This document shows, one piece after another, positions 1-12,828 of a stretch of 64,000 nt of DNA. Position numbers and translations under genes: made by a program. The number at the start of each line of letters is the position of its first letter. Position 1 is the stretch's first letter. The notes under the pieces are model-generated. The model did not search any database. It saw only the letters and a program-made list of their open reading frames with translations, and was not told where the DNA came from. The DNA is from a virus: the IMG/VR virus record IMGVR_UViG_3300042521_002634, positions 1-64,000 of that record; one strand, 5' to 3'.

Positions 1-477
1 CTCTGGGTACAAACATGTCTTCCAGTTGTCGTTCAACAAATAGTCAACAGCTGAAAGAAGCTTATTTTTAACTCCAGGACGCGCTGCTTCGAAGTACTCT
101 TTACGTGATGAGTAGAACTGTTTGACAATATTCTCTGGAGCTGTGCTAATTGCGCGCAGACTAGAAAAAATCTGATGCGGAGCCGGAGCGTCGATGAACA
201 TAATCAACTTATCACTGTCTTTAAGCGCGTCTATTACGCTGAGGCCGCCATACGCGTAGTTAGCTGACACGCTTGTGATTGGAGATACACCAGCAACTAC
301 AGCGTCATACTCGTCTAAAAACGCAGCGTCCCATTCAACAGAAGGCGGTTCATGGGTGACGTCGTAGCCTGCTTTCTCAAGGATATCGACAAGAACTCCT
401 GAAAACTGCAGGGTTCTAAGATTAGCGCGAATAGACGACTGCGATGACGTCATTCCCGTAACTAGTACTTTTTTCAT
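1..477 (-). CDS. GT-B (T4 beta-glucosyltransferase-like) glycosyltransferase paralogue, runs off the left edge
   Basis: Not in the ORF track. ATG at 477 overlaps the TGA of the upstream gene (ATGA) and the frame is open to base 1. MKKVLVTGMTSSQ...LEKAGYDV...YDAVVAGVSPITSVSANYAYGGL...MFIDAP aligns by eye with the 474..1679 protein. Confidence 0.6.
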   Translation of the reverse strand, partial: MKKVLVTGMTSSQSSIRANLRTLQFSGVLVDILEKAGYDVTHEPPSVEWDAAFLDEYDAVVAGVSPITSVSANYAYGGLSVIDALKDSDKLIMFIDAPAPHQIFSSLRAISTAPENIVKQFYSSRKEYFEAARPGVKNKLLSAVDYLLNDNWKTCLYPE

Positions 478-1679
478 GCGACTGTGCCGTCTGGGTTGAG
501 TTTAAGTCCTCTATCTTCAGTAGCTGCTCGTGTAACAATTCTGTTGCAGTGCTCGACGAACGATTGGTACGTTGGCATGTGCGGACGAAGCGCCGCCGAC
601 TGTGCGTCGGCTGCTTCTTTGAGTTCGGCGTCGTTCATAGCCTCAACCTGGCGGATAGTTAGTTTATATGGAGCGCCAAGTGGGTCGCCTTCTCCTTTAT
701 CAGTCACAAGAATTGAACCGACGCGAGCGGCGTACATGAATCGGCTACGCCACCAGCCTGACCCAGCGTGCGGGTATGGCGGCGACAAGATTCCCCAGTG
801 ATCATTGTAGAAGCCGAGAACATCAGCTTCAGTCTGAAAGCGCTGACCGCCGTATTTGCGAATAAGTTTTCTACTGCCTACGATTTCAACTGGCCACGCA
901 GGGCTCTTTCTTTCCAACCATGTGTCGTGAGGCATCAACGCGCCAAGAACCCACGAACGCTTTTTTGTAGCCGCGTCAGCAGGTGTGACTGCTTCAAGGG
1001 TGTCATATATCGTTGAGCTCGGATCAAGGGCCTCGATTGGTCCCATAACGCTAGGCATGCGCTTACGAACTAACGTTCTGTTTCCAAATCCATACATTGG
1101 GCACGCTGGCACCATGCCTGCTGCCCATCGCTTTTCTAAGAAGTTTTTTGCAGACTCGACGATCATATTTTCATAAGGTTTTACAGCATCATCAGTGTCA
1201 AGCGAGTAGTACCTGTCGATGTAGATCTTGCCTACTGCGTTTGGATTAAGAGCAATTGCGCGTGCATATGCGGCTTCAGCGTCAGCTCTGCTGAAATAGG
1301 TTGCGCTTTCATCACCGCGTTCTCCAGTAAGAAGATATTTGTAAATCATTTCTGGGTGACGACCCAAAGCTCTGGCACCGTTAAACACCGCGCTGAACTG
1401 CCAGTCATCAAAAAATCCAACGCATGGGCGACCAGAACCAAGCGCGTACAACGAGCCCATAGCGCCTTGACGGCCATTTAACGAGTTTAAAGGAGCAAGA
1501 TTGACCCACACGACGTCATAAATAGAAAGATCTTCTCCTGGTGTAATTTTACGCCAGTCAACTTCGTGGCCAGATTCTCGTAGTGCTTTAACTATTGAGC
1601 CAGGGACGTCAATTTTTTGAATTGTTCGTCGTTCTGTGTTGATCTGTAGCGCGGTAAAACCTGACATTAGGATTTTCAT
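474..1679 (-). CDS. GT-B fold DNA glycosyltransferase, T4 BGT-like
   Basis: MKILMSG N-terminal strand. YDVVWVNLAPLNSLNG...VGFFDDW resembles BGT YDRLIVVNSSINFFGG...YLFTD. WWRSRFMYAARVGSILVTD resembles BGT ITLRVWETMASDAVMLID. Confidence 0.62.
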   Translation of the reverse strand: MKILMSGFTALQINTERRTIQKIDVPGSIVKALRESGHEVDWRKITPGEDLSIYDVVWVNLAPLNSLNGRQGAMGSLYALGSGRPCVGFFDDWQFSAVFNGARALGRHPEMIYKYLLTGERGDESATYFSRADAEAAYARAIALNPNAVGKIYIDRYYSLDTDDAVKPYENMIVESAKNFLEKRWAAGMVPACPMYGFGNRTLVRKRMPSVMGPIEALDPSSTIYDTLEAVTPADAATKKRSWVLGALMPHDTWLERKSPAWPVEIVGSRKLIRKYGGQRFQTEADVLGFYNDHWGILSPPYPHAGSGWWRSRFMYAARVGSILVTDKGEGDPLGAPYKLTIRQVEAMNDAELKEAADAQSAALRPHMPTYQSFVEHCNRIVTRAATEDRGLKLNPDGTVA

Positions 1680-1696
1680 ATGTGATTCCTTTTCTT

Positions 1697-1795
1697 CTAG
1701 TCGTCGTCTTCTACGCCTCTGTCACCGCAGAACGGGTCGACAGGAGCTGGTGACTTACAAGCACACGGATTGTTGCGTTTTCCAATAATTGTCAT
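1697..1795 (-). CDS. 32-aa Cys-containing peptide MTIIGKRNNPCACKSPAPVDPFCGDRGVEDDD
   Basis: ATG at 1795 with an AAGGA SD. Fills the gap between the SSB terminator and the glycosyltransferase. Confidence 0.45.
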   Translation of the reverse strand: MTIIGKRNNPCACKSPAPVDPFCGDRGVEDDD

Positions 1796-1815
1796 AAGTT
1801 CCTTAAGTAGATTAG

Positions 1816-1855
1816 TGTAAGACGCCGCTCCACCGAAGCAGAGCGACGTCTTACG
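1816..1855 (-). terminator. hairpin after the SSB gene
   Basis: GTAAGACG(C)CGCTC...GAGCG(A)CGTCTTAC inverted repeat. Confidence 0.55.
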
Positions 1856-1871
1856 GGCGTTCCAAGTAAAC

Positions 1872-2417
1872 TTAGAACGGTGCGGTTGGCGCTGGCGCCG
1901 GAGCAGCTGCGGCCGCAGCAGCAGGCGCTGCGGCTGGCGCCGGAGCTGGTGCTGGTGCTGGTGCTGGAGCAGGCGCTGGTGCTGGTGCAGCAGCTGCTGC
2001 GGTTGCAGCAGCCTGAACAGCGTAGTACGCCTTAATTTCGTTCTTTTTCTGACCTTGCCATGTTCGTGATCCAATCTGCGCGCGGAACGATCGACCTTTG
2101 AGGATCTGTTCAATCTGAGCGTTTGTAGGACTCTGAGCAAAGTACTCCCGGTTAAGACCAAGAGAATTCATCTTGCGAAAGAAGATTCCAAGTGCTGTCG
2201 GGTTATCGGTTGAAACAACGAGGTTGTCCCAAACAAGGCGCTTTGCGTGCGCTCCAGTCTGGACTTGCGCCTTTACGGCGAACATCGTCTTTCCTGTTTG
2301 TGTTACTTTTGCTACAGCTTCCACGATCTGAAGATCGTAGTCACCGTCCGGAAGCGGGTCGTAATTTCCGGTGTCTGCTGCCTCTTTGACGAGGTCTCCC
2401 CAGTTTAGGGTATTCAT
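1872..2417 (-). CDS. single-stranded DNA-binding protein (DUF669-like)
   Basis: YDPLPDGDYDLQIVEA N-terminus, (AP)n linker, C-terminal PF tip; follows Sak4. Confidence 0.75.
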   Translation of the reverse strand: MNTLNWGDLVKEAADTGNYDPLPDGDYDLQIVEAVAKVTQTGKTMFAVKAQVQTGAHAKRLVWDNLVVSTDNPTALGIFFRKMNSLGLNREYFAQSPTNAQIEQILKGRSFRAQIGSRTWQGQKKNEIKAYYAVQAAATAAAAAPAPAPAPAPAPAPAPAPAAAPAAAAAAAPAPAPTAPF

Positions 2418-2447
2418 TGTCTGTTACCTATCTTTCTGTCTCGTGGT

Positions 2448-3206
2448 TTATTTTTTTGCTTTTGGTTTTTCACCAAACACAATATCAAGCATTCGCTCAA
2501 TACCGAGGTTTTCCTGCTCGACAATTTTGCCGAGTCTACCTTGAACGCGTTCTCCAGCTTCAAACTGGTTAGTTCGCTCAACGTACATACGACGCGCCTT
2601 GTATGGAGGCTGCGTAGGGTCGCCTGTTGAGAATTCTTCAACAGTAATCGCTCCTAAGATGTCGTAGAAATACGGCGCCTGAATTGCAAGTTGACCTTGC
2701 AAGTACGGACGATAACGACCGTCCTGGCTTTGACGTGCCATTGCGGTGAGGACTACAGCCTCGAGCGGAGCAGTCGGGTGCATCGTCAAGTCACGAAGGT
2801 CACGCAATAGCGCTCCCATGTGACGAAGAAGTTCGCCCCATTGCTGCATCTGCATTTGATTTGTACCGGCAATGTTATCCATGCACTTAACTTGTAGTTC
2901 AGACACGGAGTCAATAATCAGTGACTTAAACTGGTGCTTACCCAGCTGCAGCCACTGATACGCCTTAAGCACTGTGTCATACTCTGTCACGTTTACAACG
3001 CATGTATCCCAAGTTCCGTCTGCTACTGGTGGTTCTTCCCGTAGCGGATCCCAGTACTTAACATTGATTGGCAAGAATCTATGTCCGCCTTCAACGTCAA
3101 GCATGAGACGAGGATACGGTGCTGTCACCGCAAATGTTGATTTACCTACCTTAGACTCTCCATAGACCATCATGGTCAAGGAGCGTTGTACTTCACCCAT
3201 TGTCAC
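2448..3206 (-). CDS. sak4: Sak4-like AAA ATPase / ssDNA annealing protein
   Basis: YGESKVGKST Walker A, LDVEGG, IIDSVSE Walker B; Cas4-Sak4-SSB synteny. Confidence 0.8.
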   Translation of the reverse strand: MTMGEVQRSLTMMVYGESKVGKSTFAVTAPYPRLMLDVEGGHRFLPINVKYWDPLREEPPVADGTWDTCVVNVTEYDTVLKAYQWLQLGKHQFKSLIIDSVSELQVKCMDNIAGTNQMQMQQWGELLRHMGALLRDLRDLTMHPTAPLEAVVLTAMARQSQDGRYRPYLQGQLAIQAPYFYDILGAITVEEFSTGDPTQPPYKARRMYVERTNQFEAGERVQGRLGKIVEQENLGIERMLDIVFGEKPKAKK

Positions 3207-4153
3207 TCACTTCCTTTTATGTCTCTTGATTTGTAGTATTCATACGGGTCGGCGACCTCGTACATCTCAGTGATTGCGTTCTCGGCGGCGCTTCCGTCGT
3301 CGATAAGCGGACAAACACTAAAGAACTGACACTTCCATTTGCAGTCACGACTAGGCCGTGGGTATGCAACGAAGTGATGATCGTGGCCTTCATCAAGCGA
3401 CTTTTTTGTCTCCATCAAGTCTTTGATTGTTCCATGAATTCTTGCCCAAAATGATCGCAATGCGAACACATTATGGCGAACTTCCATTTGTTCGTAGAAC
3501 GGTGGCCTTGCGTTTGCTGAACGCTTGACCTTTTTTAGCATTGTAAAGATGCCACCTTCACTTCGTTCTCCTTCCTTATTTTGCGCTGTCTCCAGCATCA
3601 TATAAGTAAGGATCTGCTCATTCATGTGAGCCATTGAGGTGAAGTCTGTGAATGATCCGCCGACTGTCTTAAAGTCACGGAACATACGCACACCGTCACC
3701 GCGACGACGAACACGCATGTCAAGTTTACCTTGAAGTTCGACTGCACCGTCAAACAAAGGCATGCTGATTATTTCTTCAGTTGAGATCATTTCAAGCTCG
3801 GCATCAATACCGTTCTCTTCTACCCATTGAAGATATCCTTCAAGCATGATGCGCCCAAGTTCGGCTTCACTGTCAAGGTCTACAGTGTCACGGTAACTGT
3901 CGATAAGAGCCTGCTTGTCACGGTCTACGAACATCGAGTGCGCCTCAAGCAGCGGAATACCTTGGCCGTAGTACGCGTCAAGCGCGTTGTGAATTCTAGA
4001 ACCAAGCGCCAGCGCGCCGGTCATGTTTTGAGTCTTTGGTTGAAGACGTCGGTAATACGCCAACCACCACTTGCGTCTGCAGTCTTTGTATGTCTGCAGC
4101 TCGCTGTTAGAGAGCTTGTACGGCATGTTTACTTGTGTGACTGTATCTGTCAT
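3203..4153 (-). CDS. Cas4/RecB-like PD-(D/E)XK exonuclease
   Basis: LSNSELQTYKDCRRKW, GSRIH, GKLD...DFKT, and C-terminal C-x3-C-x5-C Fe-S cysteines. Confidence 0.85.
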   Translation of the reverse strand: MTDTVTQVNMPYKLSNSELQTYKDCRRKWWLAYYRRLQPKTQNMTGALALGSRIHNALDAYYGQGIPLLEAHSMFVDRDKQALIDSYRDTVDLDSEAELGRIMLEGYLQWVEENGIDAELEMISTEEIISMPLFDGAVELQGKLDMRVRRRGDGVRMFRDFKTVGGSFTDFTSMAHMNEQILTYMMLETAQNKEGERSEGGIFTMLKKVKRSANARPPFYEQMEVRHNVFALRSFWARIHGTIKDLMETKKSLDEGHDHHFVAYPRPSRDCKWKCQFFSVCPLIDDGSAAENAITEMYEVADPYEYYKSRDIKGSE

Positions 4154-5943
4154 TACGCTTTCTCCGATCGCAACATATCTAGAAGTTGCGCCTTATCTCG
4201 AACGATTTGTTCGAAGTTGTCTGCTTTTGTATCTAGCACTTGAATTACACGCTCTTCAATGGTGTCCTCTGTTACGTAGTCCATAATGACGATGCTGTCA
4301 TGAATTTCACTACCAATGCGGTGTACTCTGTCCATTGCTTGTTTATGATCAATAAGTGACCATGGACGTTGAAGCATGACAAGTCGTCTAGCCGCGGTAA
4401 GAGTGATGCCAACGCCTCCAGCCTGAGCAGTGAACAATATCCATTTAATTTTTCCAGACTGGAAGTCATCAACGGCTTGCTGGCGTTCGTCCTCATTTTG
4501 CGCGCCTGTAATTAACCCGTGAGGTATCTTTTTAGCAGTCATCTGAGCACTTAGTAGTTCAATAAGTTGGCGAGATACTGCGCATACAGCGACAGAATCA
4601 TCACCAAAGTCTCCATTTGATATGTCGTCCATAAGCGCGTCTACCTTGCACGATGGCTCTGCAAGAAGCGCTTTTATTTCACCAGTGTCTTCGTCAATAT
4701 CTAACTGCGCGTACGAGCTGGCAAACTGCAGAAGACGTATAGTCTGAGTTAGCGGACTTGGCGCTGTAAGAGCGTCTCCACCTTCAAGTTCAGCAATCAT
4801 AAGATCACGCATTTGCTGATACGCTTTCTTTTGCTTAGTAGACATCTCAACATCACGACGCTCTGTGACTACTGGCGGAAGCCACTGCAACACCTTAGCT
4901 TTGAGCATTCGACGCATTCTTGGATTTATCGCCGCGTAAAATTCTTCTTCCATATGAGGTTTTACGCCAAGAACCATCATTCCGCCAAACGCATTCAACA
5001 TGGTGTTAATCATGCGATCAACCCAGCGAGTCTTGCTTGGCCATTCTTCAGGCGATAGCCAATGAAGAATCGGCCAAAGATCTAAAACGTTATTGGCGAT
5101 AGGTGTACCTGTAAGAGCAAATCTAAATTTTGCGCTGCCTGTTGCCGCCCAAAGTGCACGCGTCTGTTTTGATTTAGGCTCTTTGGAGCGGTGAATTTCG
5201 TCGGCAATGACTGAGTTAAAGTCAATTTTATTAAGTTCACGAATATGAACTTCACAGCGGTTTTCTGTGACCTTTTCATCATGGCCGCCGCAGTCACGGC
5301 AGCGTGCTAACGATACCGAGCCATAAGAAGCCAGCCGTGAGTGACCTCGAAGAGATTCCCAGTTAATGACAAATACGTCAACATCTTCCTCAAACTGTTT
5401 CCGTCGTTGCATTGCTGAACCTTTGACTACCTGCACTTTTACATCTGGCCACCATCTGGCGAATTCTCTTTCCCAGTTCTTTTTAAGCGTGTTTGGGCAA
5501 ACAACAAGCGCGGGGAACACTTTTTCACCGCGGCTGCGAAGTTCTTTAAGCGCCGTTATTGCTTGTGCTGTTTTCCCAAGACCAGGCTCATCAGCAAGAA
5601 GTGCCCTGTGTGCCGTAGCAAGAAACTGAACACCAGCGCGTTGGTGAGGAAACAGCGTGTCTTCACCGTCAATTGCTTCAACAGAACGAAGAGCGTTAGC
5701 AGGCGCAACGCGTGTCAATAGCTCATTTGTCGCCCAGTCAGTTAACCGCTGGCCAATGACAAGTTCTGACTTAAAAGTTGATCGCAACGCTAGACACGTT
5801 GCCCAGCCGACAGGTGTTTTCCACGTTTGCTCGCTAGACGACCACGTAGCGCCTGGGATACTCTTGCACAGCTCTTTGTAACGCCATTCAGCGTTAATAA
5901 TTATGTATCTACCCGTGCTATCGAGTTCTGCTTGTACTGTCAC
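4153..5943 (-). CDS. SNF2-family helicase
   Basis: LADEPGLGKT, DEIH, TGTP, QAMDRVHRIG; CxxC insertion. Confidence 0.9.
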   Translation of the reverse strand: MTVQAELDSTGRYIIINAEWRYKELCKSIPGATWSSSEQTWKTPVGWATCLALRSTFKSELVIGQRLTDWATNELLTRVAPANALRSVEAIDGEDTLFPHQRAGVQFLATAHRALLADEPGLGKTAQAITALKELRSRGEKVFPALVVCPNTLKKNWEREFARWWPDVKVQVVKGSAMQRRKQFEEDVDVFVINWESLRGHSRLASYGSVSLARCRDCGGHDEKVTENRCEVHIRELNKIDFNSVIADEIHRSKEPKSKQTRALWAATGSAKFRFALTGTPIANNVLDLWPILHWLSPEEWPSKTRWVDRMINTMLNAFGGMMVLGVKPHMEEEFYAAINPRMRRMLKAKVLQWLPPVVTERRDVEMSTKQKKAYQQMRDLMIAELEGGDALTAPSPLTQTIRLLQFASSYAQLDIDEDTGEIKALLAEPSCKVDALMDDISNGDFGDDSVAVCAVSRQLIELLSAQMTAKKIPHGLITGAQNEDERQQAVDDFQSGKIKWILFTAQAGGVGITLTAARRLVMLQRPWSLIDHKQAMDRVHRIGSEIHDSIVIMDYVTEDTIEERVIQVLDTKADNFEQIVRDKAQLLDMLRSEKA

Positions 5944-6033
5944 CTACACAATCCTTCCGTCATTTCGTATGTCTATATTACCATATACTAAGACACTTTA
6001 CTGCAAGTTTGCAGATATTTTCTTAGTATATGG

Positions 6034-6504
6034 CTATCTAAGCAATTTCATTGGTTTCCAACCAGTCTTTACTAAGCGAAGAAGCCCGTGTCTTATTGCG
6101 TCAAGAGCGTGACCTTCTCCACCTCTATGCCAGTACTCTAGCTTTTTAAGAGCGTCGTTAGAGAACATCTTCTTCGCGTCTGATGGAGATTGAAAAATCA
6201 ATTCATCAGGGTCAATTCCGTTGTCAAGCATAATGTACTTCAAAATACCAATCTGCTCCAAACTATACGGAGCTTGCGAGTTCCTTACTGTCTGCGCATT
6301 TATAATAAACCTCTCGCATACGATCTCTACTTTAGAGTCTGTTGCTTTAGCATATTTAAGCGTTTCGTAGATAGGCAAGTGGTACTCTTTCATTTGGTAC
6401 TCACCAGACTTCTCAAGCACAGGCTCTCCGCCTGGCGTAATTGAGAAAGTGCAGATACCGCTTGCTTTACCCGGATCTACTGAAAGAATAATTCTGTCGC
6501 CCAT
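6034..6504 (-). CDS. RuvC-like Holliday junction resolvase
   Basis: ILSVDPGKASG, VCERF, HALDAIRH; start overlaps the pol stop (TAATG). Confidence 0.75.
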   Translation of the reverse strand: MGDRIILSVDPGKASGICTFSITPGGEPVLEKSGEYQMKEYHLPIYETLKYAKATDSKVEIVCERFIINAQTVRNSQAPYSLEQIGILKYIMLDNGIDPDELIFQSPSDAKKMFSNDALKKLEYWHRGGEGHALDAIRHGLLRLVKTGWKPMKLLR

Positions 6505-8327
6505 TAGTACTTTTCTCCCCATGTTTCAAGTGGACCATCAATACCTGCAGTTAGCGGAACTGCCCAGCCGTCTGAAGTTGTCATGCACTGCTTTACAATT
6601 CTTTTTATTTCTTCAGCGTCTTTTCGCGGCGCGTTTAGCACGATTTCGTCGTGCACTGGAACGATCAACAGTTCTGTCAAGTCTGCTTGGTCGAGTTTCA
6701 CAAGATTTGATTTGAACACTTCAGCAGCTCCACCTTGAATAAGGTAATTGACAAGAGTGTATACACGATCTTCGTCGCACGGCAGTCGACGGCCTGTCCA
6801 TGTGTAGACATAACCTTGACCTTCGTCGCGGAGCCGACGCATTCCGGCGTCTTCAACTTGCTTTTGAAAGTACGACATTCCAGGAAAACGCAGGTCAAAA
6901 GCGTCAGATACAGCGCGCATTTGCGGTTCTGCAACGCCTGCTGTAATCGCCTGTTTTGCAACTCCAGCGCCATAGAGTCTTCCGTAGACCGTGCCTTTTA
7001 TCAGTCCACGACGCTTGTCTGAGCGTTCCATTGTCGGGTCTGCATATATTTCACGACCAATCTCAGTAAAGGGGTCAGACCCGATTGAGTCAGCGCGGTT
7101 AAACAGATCAATCAAATTGTTGTCATTTGAAAGACTTGCGAACATTCTAAATTCGACTTGGTCTAAGTCTGATGTAACAATTACGTGATTTTCATCTTTT
7201 GGAAGAAACGCCCTGCGCACTACATCGTCGCCTTTTGGCAGTGTCTGCAGCGCCGGGTTTTGTATTGACATGCGTGAAGTTCTAGCACCTAGAGTCTTCA
7301 CAGACGGGTGAACAAACCCATTGACATTTTCGCTTAAAAAGTTAGAAAAATAGGTATTGGCAAGTTTGTCGGCCTTGCGCTGTTTTAGAACTATGTCAGC
7401 AAGTTGCTTGACTTCATCGTTGCCGTTGATTTTAAGAATCTTCAATTGGTCTTTAGTGCACGATTTCTGCCCTGTTGGCGTAAACTCTGTGATCTCTGCT
7501 CCGATACTCTCGAACAAGCGAACTAGTTGTTGATTGCTAGTGATTGACGCGCCACCGTACGTCTGCTTGGCCCAGGTTTTTACTGACTCGGTGTACGTCG
7601 TAAGTTCTTCGTATTTCTTTTTTGAGTACTCAAGATCTACTCGTGCGCCATTCAGCTCCATACGAGTGACGATGCGACGAGTCTGCATTTCAAGTTCATA
7701 AGGCTTGTGGTACGGCCCATCTGGACCACACTGCTTATAGAACATTTCCCACAGCCGTGTAGTTAGCACGCAGTCTAGCGCGCCGTACGACCAGTAAGGT
7801 TTGAAGTCTACTGGAACTGTTCCCCAAGTCCAGCCGTTCTTAGCAAGTTCTTCATCAAGTGTGTTTTGTAGAGTTACAGCGCGGCCATCGACGTGCAAAG
7901 CTGCAAGTCGTTTAAGCGCTCCTGAGCCTAGTGGATCGATGATGTGCGCCATAATCATCGTGTCGTGTGCGCGGTGCCACGGCATCTTCCAACGCGATTG
8001 AACATCAAACCAACGAGCTTCAAACGCAATGTTGTGACAGATCAGCGGTCCGTCAAATTTATCCATTGCTTCATAGAAAACACCTGCCCATTCTCCCCAT
8101 GGAATTGACCAACCTTGTTCTCCATCACCAACCTGCACTAAGCGCAGTCGACCATGCCATGGCGAGAACGCGTGCTCTCTAGGATTGCCAGGCAGTTCGC
8201 CAGTTTCTGTGTCTACAGACAGCGCGTCGTATGGGCGACGCTGGCTAAGCCAGTGTATGAAATCACTTGCCTTTTGTGAGCTATCAACCAAATGAAGCTG
8301 CACGTTTGCAAGATTATCAGTCGACAT
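6504..8327 (-). CDS. polA: family A DNA polymerase with 3'-5' exonuclease
   Basis: Exo motifs DTET, HNIAFE, YGALD; motif A DLDQVEFR; motif B RRGLIKGTVYGRLYG; motif C VHDE. Confidence 0.95.
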   Translation of the reverse strand: MSTDNLANVQLHLVDSSQKASDFIHWLSQRRPYDALSVDTETGELPGNPREHAFSPWHGRLRLVQVGDGEQGWSIPWGEWAGVFYEAMDKFDGPLICHNIAFEARWFDVQSRWKMPWHRAHDTMIMAHIIDPLGSGALKRLAALHVDGRAVTLQNTLDEELAKNGWTWGTVPVDFKPYWSYGALDCVLTTRLWEMFYKQCGPDGPYHKPYELEMQTRRIVTRMELNGARVDLEYSKKKYEELTTYTESVKTWAKQTYGGASITSNQQLVRLFESIGAEITEFTPTGQKSCTKDQLKILKINGNDEVKQLADIVLKQRKADKLANTYFSNFLSENVNGFVHPSVKTLGARTSRMSIQNPALQTLPKGDDVVRRAFLPKDENHVIVTSDLDQVEFRMFASLSNDNNLIDLFNRADSIGSDPFTEIGREIYADPTMERSDKRRGLIKGTVYGRLYGAGVAKQAITAGVAEPQMRAVSDAFDLRFPGMSYFQKQVEDAGMRRLRDEGQGYVYTWTGRRLPCDEDRVYTLVNYLIQGGAAEVFKSNLVKLDQADLTELLIVPVHDEIVLNAPRKDAEEIKRIVKQCMTTSDGWAVPLTAGIDGPLETWGEKY

Positions 8328-8799
8328 CTTTATCCTTGACTAGCGTGACAACTAAACTGCACTTTTCCATAAACGCGACGACATCATATGGTCTACGATG
8401 CATGTCAGCCTTGCGCAGTCTAGACACTACTCTGCGTATTCCTGAGTTTGAAATAAGCTTAGCGCACTGCATGCACGGCACACTTGTTATGTAGATAGTT
8501 CCATTCTCGCTTCGTGATCTATCAACGTACAGAAGCGCGTTTGCCTCTGCGTGAACAGCAGGGCAAGCATCATATAAGTTGTCAAGTGGGCTTAAACCTT
8601 TAGCGCGATCGCACCAGTTGATGCAGTCGCCTGACTCTGGCCAACTAGCGGCTGGTCCATTGTACCCAGTGGCAACAATGTGTTGATCATGAGAAACGAT
8701 CACTGCGCCCATCTGCGCCCGCGTGCATCGAGATCGCGCAGACACGATGTCAGCGACGGACAACCATGTATCGTCCCAAGACAACCTTTTAAGCGTCAT
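8317..8799 (-). CDS. dCMP deaminase
   Basis: ATGYNG, HAEANA, PCMQC zinc-deaminase motifs. Confidence 0.92.
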   Translation of the reverse strand: MTLKRLSWDDTWLSVADIVSARSRCTRAQMGAVIVSHDQHIVATGYNGPAASWPESGDCINWCDRAKGLSPLDNLYDACPAVHAEANALLYVDRSRSENGTIYITSVPCMQCAKLISNSGIRRVVSRLRKADMHRRPYDVVAFMEKCSLVVTLVKDKDVD

Positions 8800-8979
8800 T
8801 TACTCTTCTTCCTTGTTGTTTTCTTCGATTATAGAGCCAACTGTGCCGGTCAGTATTTTTGCAACAAGTTCTAACGCCTCTTTGCGACTGAATCCTGCAC
8901 GTCTAAACTCTGAAAACACTTCATGCATCTGTACAGCAACGCTTCTAAGTGGGCTTGGATAGTCGTCGTCTTCTTTCAC
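8800..8979 (-). CDS. 59-aa hypothetical protein (..EFRRAGFSRKEALELV..)
   Basis: Not in the ORF track. GTG start overlaps the upstream TGA and the ORF exactly fills the gap. Confidence 0.6.
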   Translation of the reverse strand: MKEDDDYPSPLRSVAVQMHEVFSEFRRAGFSRKEALELVAKILTGTVGSIIEENNKEEE

Positions 8980-9839
8980 TTGCTCTCCTTTTTGAAGTTC
9001 TTCTCTATAGCCGAAATCATCGCGTCAGTGTACCACTTTTGATCTGGAGTTAGCCGTTGACGGATGTACTCATCAAACACCGCGTCAAGCGCATGACGGG
9101 CTTTTGCCTCTACTTGCGTCCATGAAGACCCAGTTATTGGCGGTATCGATTCAATAGAGCTTCGCTCTACATGATGTAGATCTTCAGCTACTTCGTAGTG
9201 CTGCTCGTACAAATGCAACGAGCCGACATGATGTCCGTACGTCCCTGGCTCAATTCCAAGTATAGACGCCATGGCGATTTGTACTCTAGTAAACTGAAAA
9301 AAGTCATATGCAGCGCCAAGCCAGACGTCATTGGATCTCATGTAGACGCTCATGTTAAGTCTGTTATTGCGAATTCTAAACTGATGAAGAATAGTGCAAG
9401 GGTAGTCGCGTTTGTTTGATTGCAAGTCTAATTCTGGGTCCCAGATAGTTACAACTGCTTGCCGCGTACTAGGATCGTTTTTAAGTCTGTCTAGCGCCTT
9501 AGCGTACTGTGTGTGCGTGCGTAGACCGTACGCGCCGTGAAACAGTCCGTTGTCTTCTGCAAAATTTTTGAACTGCGGACCGACGGCTATGACTGTCTTT
9601 GGATAGCTTACGCCAGCAATTAGCTGACAAGCTTCGACTGCGCCAATGCCAGGCACCGCGCCGCGGCTGACGCCAACAGGCAGAGTATTATAGACGTTAT
9701 CAATGAAGACAGTGGCATCTTCAATTTCTTTAGTTTGCTGCCCGCGCGGAGCAACTTCTTTGCCATACTTAAGAACCCAGTTAACAAGATCGACGTAGCC
9801 GTTCACTCCGTCTTCAACACGAATTACCGTAGTGTCCAT
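8976..9839 (-). CDS. thymidylate synthase-family enzyme of dCMP type (dCMP hydroxymethylase-like)
   Basis: RQAV, YPC catalytic Cys, MRSNDVWLGAAYD with Asp at the ThyA Asn177 position, GSLHLYE. Confidence 0.8.
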   Translation of the reverse strand: MDTTVIRVEDGVNGYVDLVNWVLKYGKEVAPRGQQTKEIEDATVFIDNVYNTLPVGVSRGAVPGIGAVEACQLIAGVSYPKTVIAVGPQFKNFAEDNGLFHGAYGLRTHTQYAKALDRLKNDPSTRQAVVTIWDPELDLQSNKRDYPCTILHQFRIRNNRLNMSVYMRSNDVWLGAAYDFFQFTRVQIAMASILGIEPGTYGHHVGSLHLYEQHYEVAEDLHHVERSSIESIPPITGSSWTQVEAKARHALDAVFDEYIRQRLTPDQKWYTDAMISAIEKNFKKESK

Positions 9840-10834
9840 GACTCTTCTGCTCTCCCTTCAGCCGCTGCTGCTATAGCAGCGCCATACGCTTTTTTGTCGT
9901 AGTGATGAAATCTTTTGACATACTGCGGATGCGGCATGACTGTCATGTTTCTGGATTCAATTCCAGACAGCAGCAGTCCTTTTTCTGCCATGCGCCCTAG
10001 AGCTACTATTCTCGGGCGGCCTAAGGCTTCCCATAAACTGAACAGACGTGAGCCGTAGAACTCGTTCGCGTTTACTATGCCGTATTGTTTCCAAACTGTA
10101 TGCGGAATGCTACTAAGTAAAAAGTCACCAGAGTTACTGTTCACTGGCATAAAAGGAAGAATAGTCTCATTTCCATACTTTAAAGTTACGTTGCGCTGAT
10201 CACCTACTATAAGCGCAGTAGGGTTTGGAGCTCCTATATATTCCGGGTACTCAGCAAGTTTTGCTGAAGCCTCAGCGATGCGTTCAGCCTTGTTGATTAT
10301 CTCCGTAGCAATCTCACCTACGTCATTAAAATTATATGGATGCGGTTGAATTTTACCAGCAAGGCGCGCGGTAGCGCCAGCTCCAAACGAATAGTATTCA
10401 AGAACTTGTGCCAGCTCATCTGTGTTGACAAAATCATCGCCGCGAGAATTGATTCTTTCAATTAGCACTTCTAGTGGCTGATACAGCCAAAATTGTGCAA
10501 CTCCACGTGACATAAGAAATAGCTCTACCCAGCGCCAACCAGATCGACCGAGAAGCCCGTACGAGTCGTTGCACGTATGAGGGCGCTTGATAGGTGCGTA
10601 GGTAACTTCTCCCCAGTGCCATCGGTCTGCAATCGCAAGACGGGACGTCCAGTCTTGCTTTTCAATTGAAATCGCGTATTCATTTAGCACCCAACGGAGC
10701 GTCTCTTCTTCTGGCTTACCTTTATGAAATTCCGTGACGCTTCTCTCAGGGAATCTTGCCTGAATCTGCGACTTAATTTCAGCAATAAGTGACGACTTAC
10801 CAGAGCCGTCAGCGCCTTCAATCACTATAAACAT
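9824..10834 (-). CDS. dNMP kinase fused to a C-terminal uracil-DNA-glycosylase-superfamily domain
   Basis: N-term IEGADGSGKS, DRW, RINSRGD. C-term G-x-P-N-P-x-ALIVGDQ...PF...SGDFL...VNA...PRIVALGRMAE...PHPQY. Confidence 0.72.
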   Translation of the reverse strand: MFIVIEGADGSGKSSLIAEIKSQIQARFPERSVTEFHKGKPEEETLRWVLNEYAISIEKQDWTSRLAIADRWHWGEVTYAPIKRPHTCNDSYGLLGRSGWRWVELFLMSRGVAQFWLYQPLEVLIERINSRGDDFVNTDELAQVLEYYSFGAGATARLAGKIQPHPYNFNDVGEIATEIINKAERIAEASAKLAEYPEYIGAPNPTALIVGDQRNVTLKYGNETILPFMPVNSNSGDFLLSSIPHTVWKQYGIVNANEFYGSRLFSLWEALGRPRIVALGRMAEKGLLLSGIESRNMTVMPHPQYVKRFHHYDKKAYGAAIAAAAEGRAEESWTLR

Positions 10835-10880: not shown

Positions 10881-11351
10881 CTAAGGAATGACTTCTACCT
10901 TATAAATCTTTTCTATTCCTTTGTCTAGAGAGGCTGCGTCATCCAATAGACGCTGAGCAACGTTTGTTAAATAGCGAGCACCGCCGTTATCGTATTTGTA
11001 CAATGCTTCAAGAACAGCGTTAGGATCTTCGCTAACTTGAGCCCAGTATCTGTCTTTTTCTGGAAATATAAGGCCTGCTTCAAATGATGGACGACAGTCT
11101 TCACAGGGTATCATTCCGTCTTTAGCGTGCTCAGGTTTTAGCTCCTGTAAACCGTATCGTTTGACTAAATGACAAGCAGCGCCGTGGTACACAACGGATA
11201 CTCCAATTCGAGAAAGAACATAAGAGCCGTTCTCAGTTTTGTAAAGCGCGAACTCAATCCAACGTGTTGAACCGCTTCTCCACGAGGAAGATTTGCCTAA
11301 GAGCGTACCACTAAACTGAAGTGTTCTTGAGCCGTCTTTTACTTGAATCAT
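10881..11351 (-). CDS. hypothetical protein with a putative Zn-binding H/C motif
   Basis: 156-aa ORF with its own -10-like element upstream; H..C...CEDC. Confidence 0.7.
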   Translation of the reverse strand: MIQVKDGSRTLQFSGTLLGKSSSWRSGSTRWIEFALYKTENGSYVLSRIGVSVVYHGAACHLVKRYGLQELKPEHAKDGMIPCEDCRPSFEAGLIFPEKDRYWAQVSEDPNAVLEALYKYDNGGARYLTNVAQRLLDDAASLDKGIEKIYKVEVIP

Positions 11352-11457: not shown

Positions 11458-12828
11458 CTATGTTCCGTTTTTTGTGCCGCCTAGGTGGTTGTACCACTTT
11501 ACGGCGGCGTATCGCATTCCGCTCGCTACCGGCTCGACACAGTGCATGTTCTCAAAGCCCGAGCTAAACACGACAATCTTGCCAGCGCCGCGAGTAATCC
11601 TGACGTTTTTATGAGTAAACACTAAATCTCCACCAGTGTAGCCGTCATTTAGAAAAGCAGAGACAGAGACAACTCTAGGAAACTCTAAGCAGTCATCAAC
11701 GTGATTATGGAAAGAGCCACCGCGCTCGTATCTTGTAAGCTGCCAGTTTGTCGACTGCAGCTCTCGTATGCTGTACATTTTTCTAAAGTCTTTGATGATT
11801 GGAGCCATGCCAGCTTCAAGACTTTCGTATAGTCTACGTATTGGGTCATGAACATGACACGACAGCTGGGTACTATTGATAAACTTAACGTAGCAGGTTC
11901 TAGCTTGGTAGTTAACAGTCGGATCTCGCTCCTCACTAAGCACCTGGGCAGGCTTCCAAAGCTTGTAGCACGAATTCTGCGCAAGACCCTTAAGAGTTTG
12001 AGCAGACTGTTTTGATATTTGGTATTGCACTATTCCTGGAGCAATCACAGTCTTTTCTTCAACAGACATGTCAACAAGTTCTGGCTCGTCGTCTGTGTAC
12101 TCTCCAAGAATTTTGTCGTAAAGTGACAAAACGCCAGAGTAGTCATGACACGAGCAGACAGGTTGATTGATCGGTGCGTCGGGCATTGGAATGTACCGGT
12201 TTCTGTTAAAAAACCTAATGTCGCCGTCACTTCCATACCGCCCTATGTCATTTCCTCGAGTTTTCTTTTGAATCCAATGATCAGGCCGAGTAAAATGCAT
12301 AAACACCACAGTAGTGTGCACATCAGAGCGCCTAGAAGGATATGCAGGACGCGCGTGCGTATGCTGCTGCCCTGCAAAGATTATTCCTTCATTTTCATTT
12401 TGCTCGTATTCTTTTTCTTCTACAATTAGGTTCCACTTTGCGGTATTTTCAATTGTTAAATCAACTGTTGTCTGTGTTCCATTTTGATCTACGTGCTCCC
12501 ATAAGTGCGGAATACAGCCATTGATTGACTGATACCTGACAACAAAGAAATACGCTTTAAGCAAGGTGTCATCATTGAATACTTCTCTAGCTTTTTTCAA
12601 AGAAAATTCTTCAATGTCCTTAGAAAAACTGATTGGAGATTCCCATCGTCCCAGCATCGTATGGTAGTAGCTAGGGCCGTCTGGTCCGAGATTGAGGTCG
12701 TTTACGCTTTTCTTAACACGAGAAAACATTTCGTCTGGGAAGAATGATTTAATTACTACAGGTTCGCTGATTAGCGGATTTGGAAGCTCAAATTCAATTT
12801 TTCCATTTCGCATATCACCACTTGCCAA
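11458..12828 (-). CDS. tandem 2OG-Fe(II) oxygenase (C-terminal prolyl-4-hydroxylase-like domain)
   Basis: Domain 1: LWEHVD...IIFAGQQHTHAR. Domain 2: RYERGGSFHNHVD..RVVSVSAFLNDGYTGGDLVF..MHCVEPVASGMRY. Confidence 0.85.
   Translation of the reverse strand: MASGDMRNGKIEFELPNPLISEPVVIKSFFPDEMFSRVKKSVNDLNLGPDGPSYYHTMLGRWESPISFSKDIEEFSLKKAREVFNDDTLLKAYFFVVRYQSINGCIPHLWEHVDQNGTQTTVDLTIENTAKWNLIVEEKEYEQNENEGIIFAGQQHTHARPAYPSRRSDVHTTVVFMHFTRPDHWIQKKTRGNDIGRYGSDGDIRFFNRNRYIPMPDAPINQPVCSCHDYSGVLSLYDKILGEYTDDEPELVDMSVEEKTVIAPGIVQYQISKQSAQTLKGLAQNSCYKLWKPAQVLSEERDPTVNYQARTCYVKFINSTQLSCHVHDPIRRLYESLEAGMAPIIKDFRKMYSIRELQSTNWQLTRYERGGSFHNHVDDCLEFPRVVSVSAFLNDGYTGGDLVFTHKNVRITRGAGKIVVFSSGFENMHCVEPVASGMRYAAVKWYNHLGGTKNGT

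Follow-up and report, generated by a model that had tools for sequence, protein, structure and literature searches.

The closest described systems for the locus reported here include two kinds of phage pathways leading to glycosylated cytosine. The T-even phages make glucosyl-5-hydroxymethylcytosine with the dCTPase/dUTPase gp56, the dCMP hydroxymethylase gp42, the dNMP kinase gp1, the dCMP deaminase cd, and the α- and β-glucosyltransferases (AGT and BGT); in T4, this modification is known to counter restriction. Pathways to glycosyl-5-hydroxycytosine are found in RB69, DLP3, and RL38J1 (PMC13326640). The locus compared with them lies in a 64,000-nucleotide stretch of viral DNA (the "window"), which is the first 64 kb of one 98,426-bp IMG/VR viral contig (IMGVR_UViG_3300042521_002634). 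Its leftmost genes form a minus-strand run encoding, among others, a thymidylate synthase (TS) homologue, a kinase fused to a uracil-DNA glycosylase (UDG) fold, a deoxycytidine monophosphate (dCMP) deaminase, a family A DNA polymerase (PolA), and two glycosyltransferases (GTs), GT1 and GT2. This run, the replication module of a freshwater actinophage that has not been cultured, probably serves a T4-style replacement of deoxycytidine (dC) by 5-hydroxymethyl-dC (5hm-dC), followed by glycosylation after replication. Among annotated genomes, only one is closely related, that of the 129-kb Actinomycetia phage DSL-LC01, which was assembled from lake metagenome data and is predicted to have Actinomycetia as its host (PMC10611076).

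The TS family offers residue marks for substrate and product, given here in the numbering of E. coli ThyA. According to a 2026 paper (PMC13326640), the N177D substitution leads to dCMP specificity and L143D/E accompanies non-methyl products, an Asp or Glu at position 143 giving the water access that results in a hydroxymethyl group, and a bulky hydrophobic residue being linked to a methyl group. The same paper identifies D169N as the mark of the flavin-dependent 5-hydroxy-dCMP synthases, found in all tested ones. Ser167 and Arg126 mark deoxyribose substrates, and MilA has Ala and Lys there (PMC5175136). As to the neighbouring enzymes, YorR is the top structural match of the DLP3 "nucleotide kinase" encoded beside a cytosine-type TS gene, similar kinases are held by the RB69 and RL38J1 clusters, and Rhizobium phage RL38J1 has a mutase gene and DNA with hexosylated cytosine (PMC13326640). 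Acinetobacter phage KARL-1 is a Lazarusvirus, among the groups listed as makers of 5-hydroxy-dC (PMC13326640).

The Thymidylate Synthase Homologue

The TS homologue (Table 1) is aligned with E. coli ThyA, a T4-like gp42, and the TS homologues of KARL-1 and of the ViI-like phage GG32. It carries RSNDVWLGAAYD (residues 168-179, window 9303-9338, minus strand), the final Asp of which aligns with Asn177 of ThyA (MAFFT), as the original prediction had it; in the protein's own numbering, this residue is D179. The TS fold residues Cys146, Glu58, Tyr94, Arg166, His207, and Tyr209 are all found in the alignment with ThyA. The complete signature, E58, Y94, R126, D143, C146, S167, D169, and D177, is that of T4-like gp42 at every listed position and is invariant across 16 unique orthologues of 64-70% overall identity. 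E. coli ThyA differs by having L143 and N177, the 5-hydroxy-type enzymes of KARL-1 and Morganella phage Rgz1 carry N169, and the deoxyuridine monophosphate (dUMP) hydroxymethylase of GG32 carries N177. The best PDB match is the CMP 5-hydroxymethylase MilA (E 6e-19; PDB 5jnh, 5b6d), which also has Asp at positions 143 and 177 and retains Asp169. MilA possesses Ala176 and Lys133 for ribose, in contrast to the deoxy-type Ser and Arg of the window enzyme. Because D143, C146, D169, D177, R126, and S167 are as in gp42, the protein is predicted to be a 5-hydroxymethyl-dCMP (5hm-dCMP) synthase of the T4 gp42 type. The signature fits neither a synthase of deoxythymidine monophosphate (dTMP) nor one of 5-hydroxy-dCMP, nor an enzyme acting on CMP. 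The product had been anticipated as a C5-modified dC, either hydroxymethyl, methyl, or hydroxy; Asp143 and the retained Asp169 support this and narrow it to hydroxymethyl.

Two other assignments of this enzyme have been weighed. It could add another C5 group: a 5-hydroxy group, in the flavin-dependent reaction of RB69 and DLP3, or a 5-methyl group, like the XP12 enzyme. Asp177 settles the cytosine specificity alone, and the rules for reading the signature were established recently, on a limited number of enzymes. This is very unlikely: the tested 5-hydroxy-dCMP synthases display D169N, whereas Asp169 is kept in the TS homologue and its 16 orthologues, and position 143 is occupied by Asp, as in T4 gp42 and MilA, and not by the bulky hydrophobic residue of methyl-adding enzymes. 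The enzyme could also be an ordinary thymidylate synthase in a plain nucleotide-metabolism and replication module, in line with the label "thymidylate synthase" that its orthologues in DSL-LC01 and the Gordonia phages bear in public records. This is barely credible in view of the joint N177D and L143D changes and of MilA being the nearest PDB entry. Furthermore, the NCBIfam thymidylate synthase equivalogs all score far under their cut-offs (65.8 against 108.35 bits for TIGR03284), so that Asn177, Leu143, and the equivalog score of a canonical ThyA are all missing. A second TS or a ThyX is absent from the contig, and DSL-LC01 holds one TS-family gene only.

The Glycosyltransferases

GT1 and GT2 find no match in Pfam, NCBIfam, or PDB sequence searches. 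GT1 belongs to an unnamed family comprising 605 clusters at 50% identity, and its model, built from 66 diverse members, displays a GT-B fold with a predicted local distance difference test (pLDDT) score of 96.9. T4 BGT (1c3j) is its top match with VIA-align (Z 18.3, 292 of 333 residues aligned, root-mean-square deviation (rmsd) 3.8), as well as the second match by E-value and the best by TM-score (0.50/0.56) in Foldseek; T4 AGT reaches Z 16.9. The structure search put forward as a check of the original prediction hence gives a GT-B model with T4 BGT as the top solved match by VIA-align and by Foldseek TM-score. The predicted likeness of the two GTs to T4 BGT stands for the fold, BGT being the top match of GT1 in two independent structure searches, and does not extend to sequence profiles, the similarity of which is not significant. 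GT1 is a candidate DNA 5-hydroxymethylcytosine (5hmC) glycosyltransferase.

Window position 1 is the contig end, and window 1-477 thus holds 159 of the 341 residues of GT2, the full-length sequence of which is provided by an overlapping contig (L006, see below). The claim that the two tandem genes are paralogous is confirmed by BLASTP for the GT2 fragment (E 7e-9) and by hhalign for full-length GT2 against the GT1 family (99.7% over 320 columns). GT2 is the more divergent of the two: it lacks four of the most conserved residues of the GT1 family (D92, W93, R311, and R313), and among 46 relatives its identity is 29-98% (median 40%), as compared with 70-99% for GT1. It is possible that GT2 uses a different donor or makes a different linkage, or that it is a non-catalytic partner.

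The main argument for modified cytosine in DNA as the GT acceptor is the co-occurrence of the GT with cytosine-type TS homologues. GT1-family genes and TS homologues having D177 are found together in seven of the eight phage genomes tested. The TS homologue is of the hydroxymethyl type in six of them (DSL-LC01, the Gordonia phages Mareelih, GodonK, and GMA2, Aeromonas phage 60AhydR15PP, and a Manatee Spring siphovirus) and of the hydroxy type in Morganella Rgz1 only. In Rgz1, the GT1-family gene lies among arabinose-5-phosphate isomerase and nucleotidyl-sugar genes adjoining the DNA polymerase, and this cluster is read as RB69-type from its gene content. Phage 60AhydR15PP is a T4-like phage with a gp42-type enzyme; its GT1-family member (6001-7077) stands in a run of four hypothetical genes of 320-360 residues (L002:4897-10195) between motA and asiA. 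By hhalign, no relation is found between the GT1 family and gp206 of KARL-1, the gene product at the place of DLP3's first transferase.

The Kinase-UDG Fusion

The first gene of the run encodes two domains. The N-terminal kinase domain possesses a P-loop (GADGSGKS) and shows a weak match to Pfam Thymidylate_kin, and its profile, made from 32 homologues, matches YorR (2axp) at E 7e-8. In the AlphaFold model of the whole fusion, also derived from 32 homologues (pLDDT 91.3, predicted TM-score (pTM) 0.92), this domain superimposes on YorR with Z 18.2 (rmsd 2.5, 170 residues aligned, VIA-align), thymidylate kinases coming next at about Z 14. Profile comparison with hhalign gives 99% for the TS-adjacent kinase of Gordonia phage Mareelih and 90.7% for KARL-1 gp207, taken to correspond to the gp78-type kinase of DLP3; the kinase adjoins the TS homologue in the Gordonia phages also. 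The match to M6 gp54, a 5-hydroxymethyldeoxyuridine DNA kinase, is weak (58% over 31 columns). The strong matches to YorR and to TS-adjacent kinases, together with the weak one to M6 gp54, favour a kinase acting on 5hm-dCMP at the nucleotide level, which is the better guess by analogy.

The C-terminal domain gives no Pfam sequence match at E up to 1, and NCBIfam and PDB sequence searches are empty as well. Its fold is nevertheless that of the UDG superfamily: with VIA-align, residues 192-328 match UdgX (6ail; Z 11.5, 128 aligned, rmsd 3.0), the family 4 UDG of Thermotoga maritima (1l9g; Z 11.4, 131 aligned), the T. thermophilus enzyme (2d3y; Z 11.0), and the UDG domain of phiLo PolA (9qhs; Z 10.1). 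In a language-model search of the ESM Atlas, the nearest clusters are viral proteins of 122-137 residues, 18-36% of which have PF03167. D212, R214, P227, F228, N255, H302, P303, and Q304 are invariant in the 32 fusion homologues, and, by eye, GDQRN occupies the position of motif A and HPQY that of motif B, whose canonical forms are GE(A/G)PG or GQDPY and HPS, respectively. In terms of the family 4 UDGs, we tentatively read D212 as the acidic residue of motif A, F228 as the Phe that stacks, N255 as the Asn that reads the base, and H302 as the His of motif B. The predicted fusion is thus borne out by the fold. The acidic residue, the Phe, the Asn, and the His are read as a pyrimidine pocket, and binding or removal of uracil-type bases in phage DNA is the most likely role of the domain, this being the least certain part of the account.

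Homologues of the fusion are numerous in metagenomes (386 matches), and the best 120 are full-length (~335 residues), bar one truncated copy. Cultured phages are found to have the kinase half alone, which makes the fusion a trait of the DSL-LC01-like lineage. Mareelih gene 178, upstream of the kinase gene of this phage, has been considered as a detached UDG domain and is ruled out. In a word-based search, the only free-standing UDG-like domain is a 140-residue protein on a 1-kb contig.

The fusion itself raises another reading, that it acts on DNA like 5-hydroxymethyluridine DNA kinase (5-HMUDK), the UDG-like domain flipping a 5-hydroxymethylpyrimidine and the kinase phosphorylating its hydroxyl for further substitution. 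A kinase is here fused to a base-flipping fold in an arrangement that a pTM of 0.92 suggests to be fixed, and thymidine hypermodification pathways set a precedent for pairing a kinase with a glycosylase-like protein. This reading is nonetheless quite improbable. The profile matches noted above favour YorR and the TS-adjacent kinases over M6 gp54; the segments DRWHWGE and RGDD, both conserved, are read, by eye, as the NMP-site and LID motifs of a thymidylate kinase; the counterpart kinase of the Gordonia phages lacks a UDG domain; and no aGPT-Pplase, pyridoxal phosphate (PLP), or radical S-adenosylmethionine (radical-SAM) gene is seen in the block.

Organization and Conservation of the Module

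All features that had been described for the minus-strand run are present, namely the TS homologue, the kinase-UDG, the deaminase, PolA, and the two GT genes (Table 1). Adjacent genes overlap or are at most 192 nucleotides apart, a spacing that fits one or a few transcripts; in a promoter and terminator scan, sites are no more numerous than in shuffled sequence. The zinc motifs of the dCMP deaminase (HaE and C.qC) are kept in 18 relatives. The 59-residue open reading frame (ORF) between the TS homologue and the deaminase is without match in family searches and is present in 27 related loci at 36-62% identity by tblastn.

Table 1. Features of the minus-strand run and of its continuation past the left edge of the window (window coordinates unless the overlapping contig L006 is named)
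Feature	Coordinates	Strand	Basis or remark
Kinase-UDG fusion, 336 aa (P0002)	9824-10834	-	First gene of the run
Kinase domain, residues 1-190 of P0002	10265..10834	-	YorR/thymidylate-kinase type P-loop; candidate 5hm-dCMP kinase
UDG-superfamily fold domain, residues 192-336 of P0002	9827..10261	-	Structure matches
TS homologue, predicted 5-hydroxymethyl-dCMP synthase	8976-9839	-	Pfam Thymidylat_synt, 84 bits (PF00303)
Small conserved ORF, 59 aa, between TS homologue and deaminase	8800..8979	-	tblastn conservation
dCMP deaminase	8317-8799	-	Pfam dCMP_cyt_deam_1, E 1e-18
Family A DNA polymerase with 3'-5' exonuclease domain	6504-8327	-	Pfam DNA_pol_A, E 7e-53
RuvC-like	6034-6522	-	Pfam
SNF2 helicase	4153-5943	-	Pfam
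PD-(D/E)XK nuclease	3203-4153	-	Pfam
AAA_24 ATPase	2448-3206	-	Pfam
DUF669	1872-2417	-	Pfam
GT1, 401 aa, GT-B glycosyltransferase, unnamed family	474-1679	-	Predicted structure
GT2, first 159 residues	1-477	-	Diverged GT1 paralogue, ends at contig edge
Full GT2, 341 aa	L006:1007-2032		GT1 paralogue
gp56-like NTP pyrophosphatase, 155 aa	L006:2039-2506		BLASTP to T4 gp56; Pfam dUTPase_2
C5-cytosine-methylase-like protein, 421 aa	L006:3452-4717		Motifs

Three IMG/VR contigs overlap the left end of the window, two with 100% and one with 97% identity, and two of them extend well past it. Contig L006, which is 100% identical to window 1-1483, shows that GT1 is followed by GT2, an all-alpha nucleoside triphosphate (NTP) pyrophosphatase, a 139-residue protein, a 65-residue ORF, DUF6378, a C5-cytosine-methylase-like protein, a pyrimidine-dimer glycosylase, a 112-residue ORF, and WhiB. 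The pyrophosphatase resembles T4 gp56, the dCTPase/dUTPase acting on deoxycytidine and deoxyuridine triphosphates (dCTP and dUTP), with BLASTP E 2e-7 and 29% identity over 108 residues, and matches Pfam dUTPase_2 at E 2.5e-11. On this sequence basis, it is a candidate dCTPase/dUTPase that would fill the missing step of a T4-like pathway. The pathway had been suspected to continue beyond the left edge, and it does so with this gene, located after GT2 on contigs identical to the window end. The search for a dCTPase or for nucleoside diphosphate (NDP)-sugar enzymes among the genes left of the window yields a candidate for the former and none of the latter. The 98-kb contig itself contains no member of the ThyX, MazG, or dUTPase_2 families. 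In the methylase-like protein, the catalytic Pro-Cys is retained, together with the Glu of motif VI and the RxR of motif VIII, while its cofactor motifs are altered by eye (motif I CNGLAG instead of FxGxG, motif X GKAV instead of GNxV).

The arrangement has been compared in 80 related IMG/VR loci, each as far as its contig reaches. The order kinase-UDG, TS homologue, deaminase, PolA ... DUF669, GT1, GT2, and NTPase is kept in all 80, as is the succession of the 139-residue gene, DUF6378, the methylase-like protein, the glycosylase, and WhiB after the NTPase. The modification block is syntenic in DSL-LC01 as well. The replication proteins of DSL-LC01 and of the window share 77-90% identity and the same order, PolA being 84% identical to the DSL-LC01 DNA polymerase I; for the replication and recombination genes from RuvC-like to DUF669 (1872..6522), the orthologues range from 57 to 90%. 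Identity is much lower for the modification genes, namely the TS homologue (60%), the kinase (52%), GT2 (40%), and GT1 (28%). In DSL-LC01, a UDP-galactopyranose mutase gene is inserted between GT1 and GT2 (L001:10031-11128); it is missing from all 80 loci of the window lineage, which suggests that the two lineages use different sugars.

The presence of a dCMP deaminase two genes away from the TS homologue gives rise to another reading, in which 5hm-dCMP is deaminated to 5-hydroxymethyl-dUMP, and the glycosylated base is 5-hydroxymethyluracil (5hmU) replacing thymine. In UDGs, an Asn reads the uracil face, and the UDG-like pocket of the fusion keeps the invariant N255. However, T4 also has a dCMP deaminase and yet has no hmU, the dUMP hydroxymethylase of GG32 keeps Asn177, and the gp56-like dCTPase candidate fits a replacement of cytosine. 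A thymine replacement is therefore highly unlikely.

Some neighbouring features may be mentioned. The DUF669 protein ends in a long low-complexity, Ala/Pro-rich C-terminal tail (APAPAP...AAAAAAAPAPAP). Directly upstream of the kinase-UDG gene, a 156-residue ORF (window 10881-11351, minus strand) has no family match and is found at 67-74% identity in 23 related loci; it may belong to the module. A 456-residue protein (window 11458-12828, minus strand) carries a C-terminal 2-oxoglutarate (2OG)-Fe(II) oxygenase domain. A route to 5hmC through 5-methylcytosine and a TET enzyme has been considered for it and rejected, because the domain is of the PKHD/prolyl-hydroxylase type and not of the TET/JBP type.

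The Phage and Its Host

The contig is incomplete (74% complete by CheckV) and has no terminal repeat. Joining its ends, as for a permuted circle, lengthens GT2 by five codons only, and the contig is hence a fragment. The GC content is ~48%. Besides the replication module, the window encodes head and tail proteins: terminase, portal, major head protein, major tail protein, a 1044-residue tape measure, and Dit-like tail proteins. No sheath protein is found among the ten large ORFs scanned, and from its tail genes the phage looks like a siphovirus. The designation as a PolA siphovirus agrees with the Pfam assignment of the family A polymerase and with the siphovirus type of the tail genes.

Megablast of window 1-10834 against 50,697 phage records returns zero matches. 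More distant homologues of the modification genes are held by large Gordonia phages. The predicted actinophage host agrees with the close relationship to DSL-LC01, the WhiB genes, and the Gordonia phage homologues, and an actinobacterial label is a reasonable one.

Proposed Pathway

Computation establishes the signature of the active site, the folds, the gene order shared among relatives, and the co-occurrence of GT and TS genes. These findings are consistent with the following scheme, in which all enzymatic activities, DNA as the acceptor, the nature of the sugar, and the extent of cytosine replacement are inferred. Judging from its active-site residues, the TS homologue would convert dCMP and methylene-tetrahydrofolate to 5hm-dCMP. 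By analogy with T4 gp1, the YorR-like kinase domain would phosphorylate this product, and a host NDP kinase would provide the triphosphate. The gp56-like pyrophosphatase would lower dCTP and dUTP and feed dCMP into the pathway, and the dCMP deaminase, like T4 cd, would deliver dUMP for dTMP synthesis by a host enzyme. The family A polymerase would then incorporate 5hm-dC. After replication, GT1 would transfer a sugar from a host NDP-sugar to the hydroxymethyl group, and GT2 could add a second sugar, make a different linkage, or act as a partner subunit.

Several points weigh against this scheme. The phage is known from metagenomes only, and the substrate of the kinase domain is a candidate assignment only. 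The NTP pyrophosphatase may be just a dUTPase, a conserved C5-methylase-like gene is odd in a block that would replace all cytosine, and no sugar-nucleotide synthesis gene occurs in the 80 related loci. The other points concern the GTs. The GT1 profile has no significant match to T4 BGT (hhalign 10.5%, over 51 N-terminal columns in register), and generic GT-B enzymes are only ~1.3 Z below BGT, at about Z 17, many lipid and protein GTs being at Z 15-17. Cyanophage C48C1 (Kyanoviridae) carries a tandem pair of GT1-family genes (L097:4001-6033), and no TS homologue is found in it. Since a significant sequence match to BGT is lacking and generic GT-B enzymes are close, the assignment of a DNA acceptor rests on context.

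These GT findings lend themselves to a reading in which 5hm-dC is made, and GT1 and GT2 glycosylate virion proteins or polymers of the host envelope rather than DNA. Some actinobacteriophage GTs act on such acceptors. The GT-B fold leaves the acceptor open, as the Z values of lipid and protein GTs illustrate, the C48C1 pair occurs without a TS homologue, and no sequence link of GT1 to BGT is found. Against it, the GT genes are embedded in the replication module, between DUF669 and the gp56-like NTPase, in 80 relatives; no structure matches GT1 better than T4 BGT; seven of eight genomes pair the GT1 family with a cytosine-type TS homologue; and the Rgz1 member belongs to a polymerase-proximal cluster of arabinose-nucleotide genes. 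A non-DNA acceptor is therefore considered improbable, and glycosylation of 5hm-dC in DNA is preferred.

A variant is unlikely but carries somewhat more weight: the kinase-UDG and the methylase-like protein would act on DNA itself and, along with GT2, might give rise to a chemically undescribed cytosine adduct. Base-flipping surveillance, or a "mop-up" by which unmodified C, U, or hmU would be located in the phage genome and repaired or converted, is one possibility for such an action on DNA.

Comparison with Known Systems

A full-text literature search found no paper joining actinobacteriophage, hydroxymethylcytosine, and glycosyltransferase. The type of system is known; its novelty here lies in the phage lineage, in kinase and GT families that are not orthologous to the known ones, and in the kinase-UDG fusion. 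If the proposed pathway is correct, glycosylated hydroxymethylcytosine extends beyond the T4-like myoviruses of proteobacteria and marks a large, abundant lineage of freshwater and soil actinophages having hundreds of metagenomic relatives, as well as cultured Gordonia phages of the genera Forzavirus, Godonkavirus, and Gimaduovirus. It would bear on the evasion of restriction and CRISPR by such phages, could account for poor amplification or sequencing of their DNA, and would correct the labels "thymidylate synthase", "thymidylate kinase", and "hypothetical protein" of the orthologues. The unnamed GT-B family, of ~600 clusters, is put forward as a source of candidate DNA glycosyltransferases, and the kinase-UDG fusion and the atypical C5-methylase-like protein are flagged as two unexplained conserved partners.

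The UDG-like domain shares its fold with the family 4 UDGs, UdgX, and the UDG domain of phiLo PolA, at Z 10-11.5. With phiLo PolA (PMC13697223), the fusion shares the theme of a UDG module joined to an enzyme of replication or of nucleotides in a phage whose pyrimidines are, or are predicted to be, modified. The window domain differs in being ~140 residues long, fused to a kinase rather than to a polymerase, and without a Pfam UDG match, and in displaying, by eye, GDQRN at motif A in place of GE(A/G)PG.

The RB69, DLP3, and RL38J1 pathways (PMC13326640) resemble the window block in associating a cytosine-type TS homologue with a YorR-like kinase and GT-B transferases. Furthermore, the cluster of Morganella Rgz1, here read as RB69-type, contains a GT1-family member, and the mutase of RL38J1 is paralleled by the UDP-galactopyranose mutase of DSL-LC01. 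In contrast to the RB69/DLP3-type enzymes, the window TS homologue keeps Asp169 and is predicted to carry out a folate-dependent hydroxymethylation rather than a hydroxylation. The window block also has no arabinose genes, and its GT1 is unrelated to KARL-1 gp206.

With respect to the T-even pathway to glucosyl-5hmC, the window block matches both its logic and its set of steps, through the gp42 signature of the TS homologue, the gp56-similar NTPase past the left edge, the dCMP deaminase, and the BGT-like structure of GT1. It differs from T4 in lineage, belonging to an actinophage whose polymerase is of family A and whose tail genes are of the siphovirus type. Its kinase, which carries a fused UDG-fold domain, resembles YorR and thymidylate kinases instead of gp1. 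Its GTs form a separate, unnamed family without significant sequence match to T4 BGT and, unlike the T4 pathway, the block includes an atypical C5-methylase-like gene.

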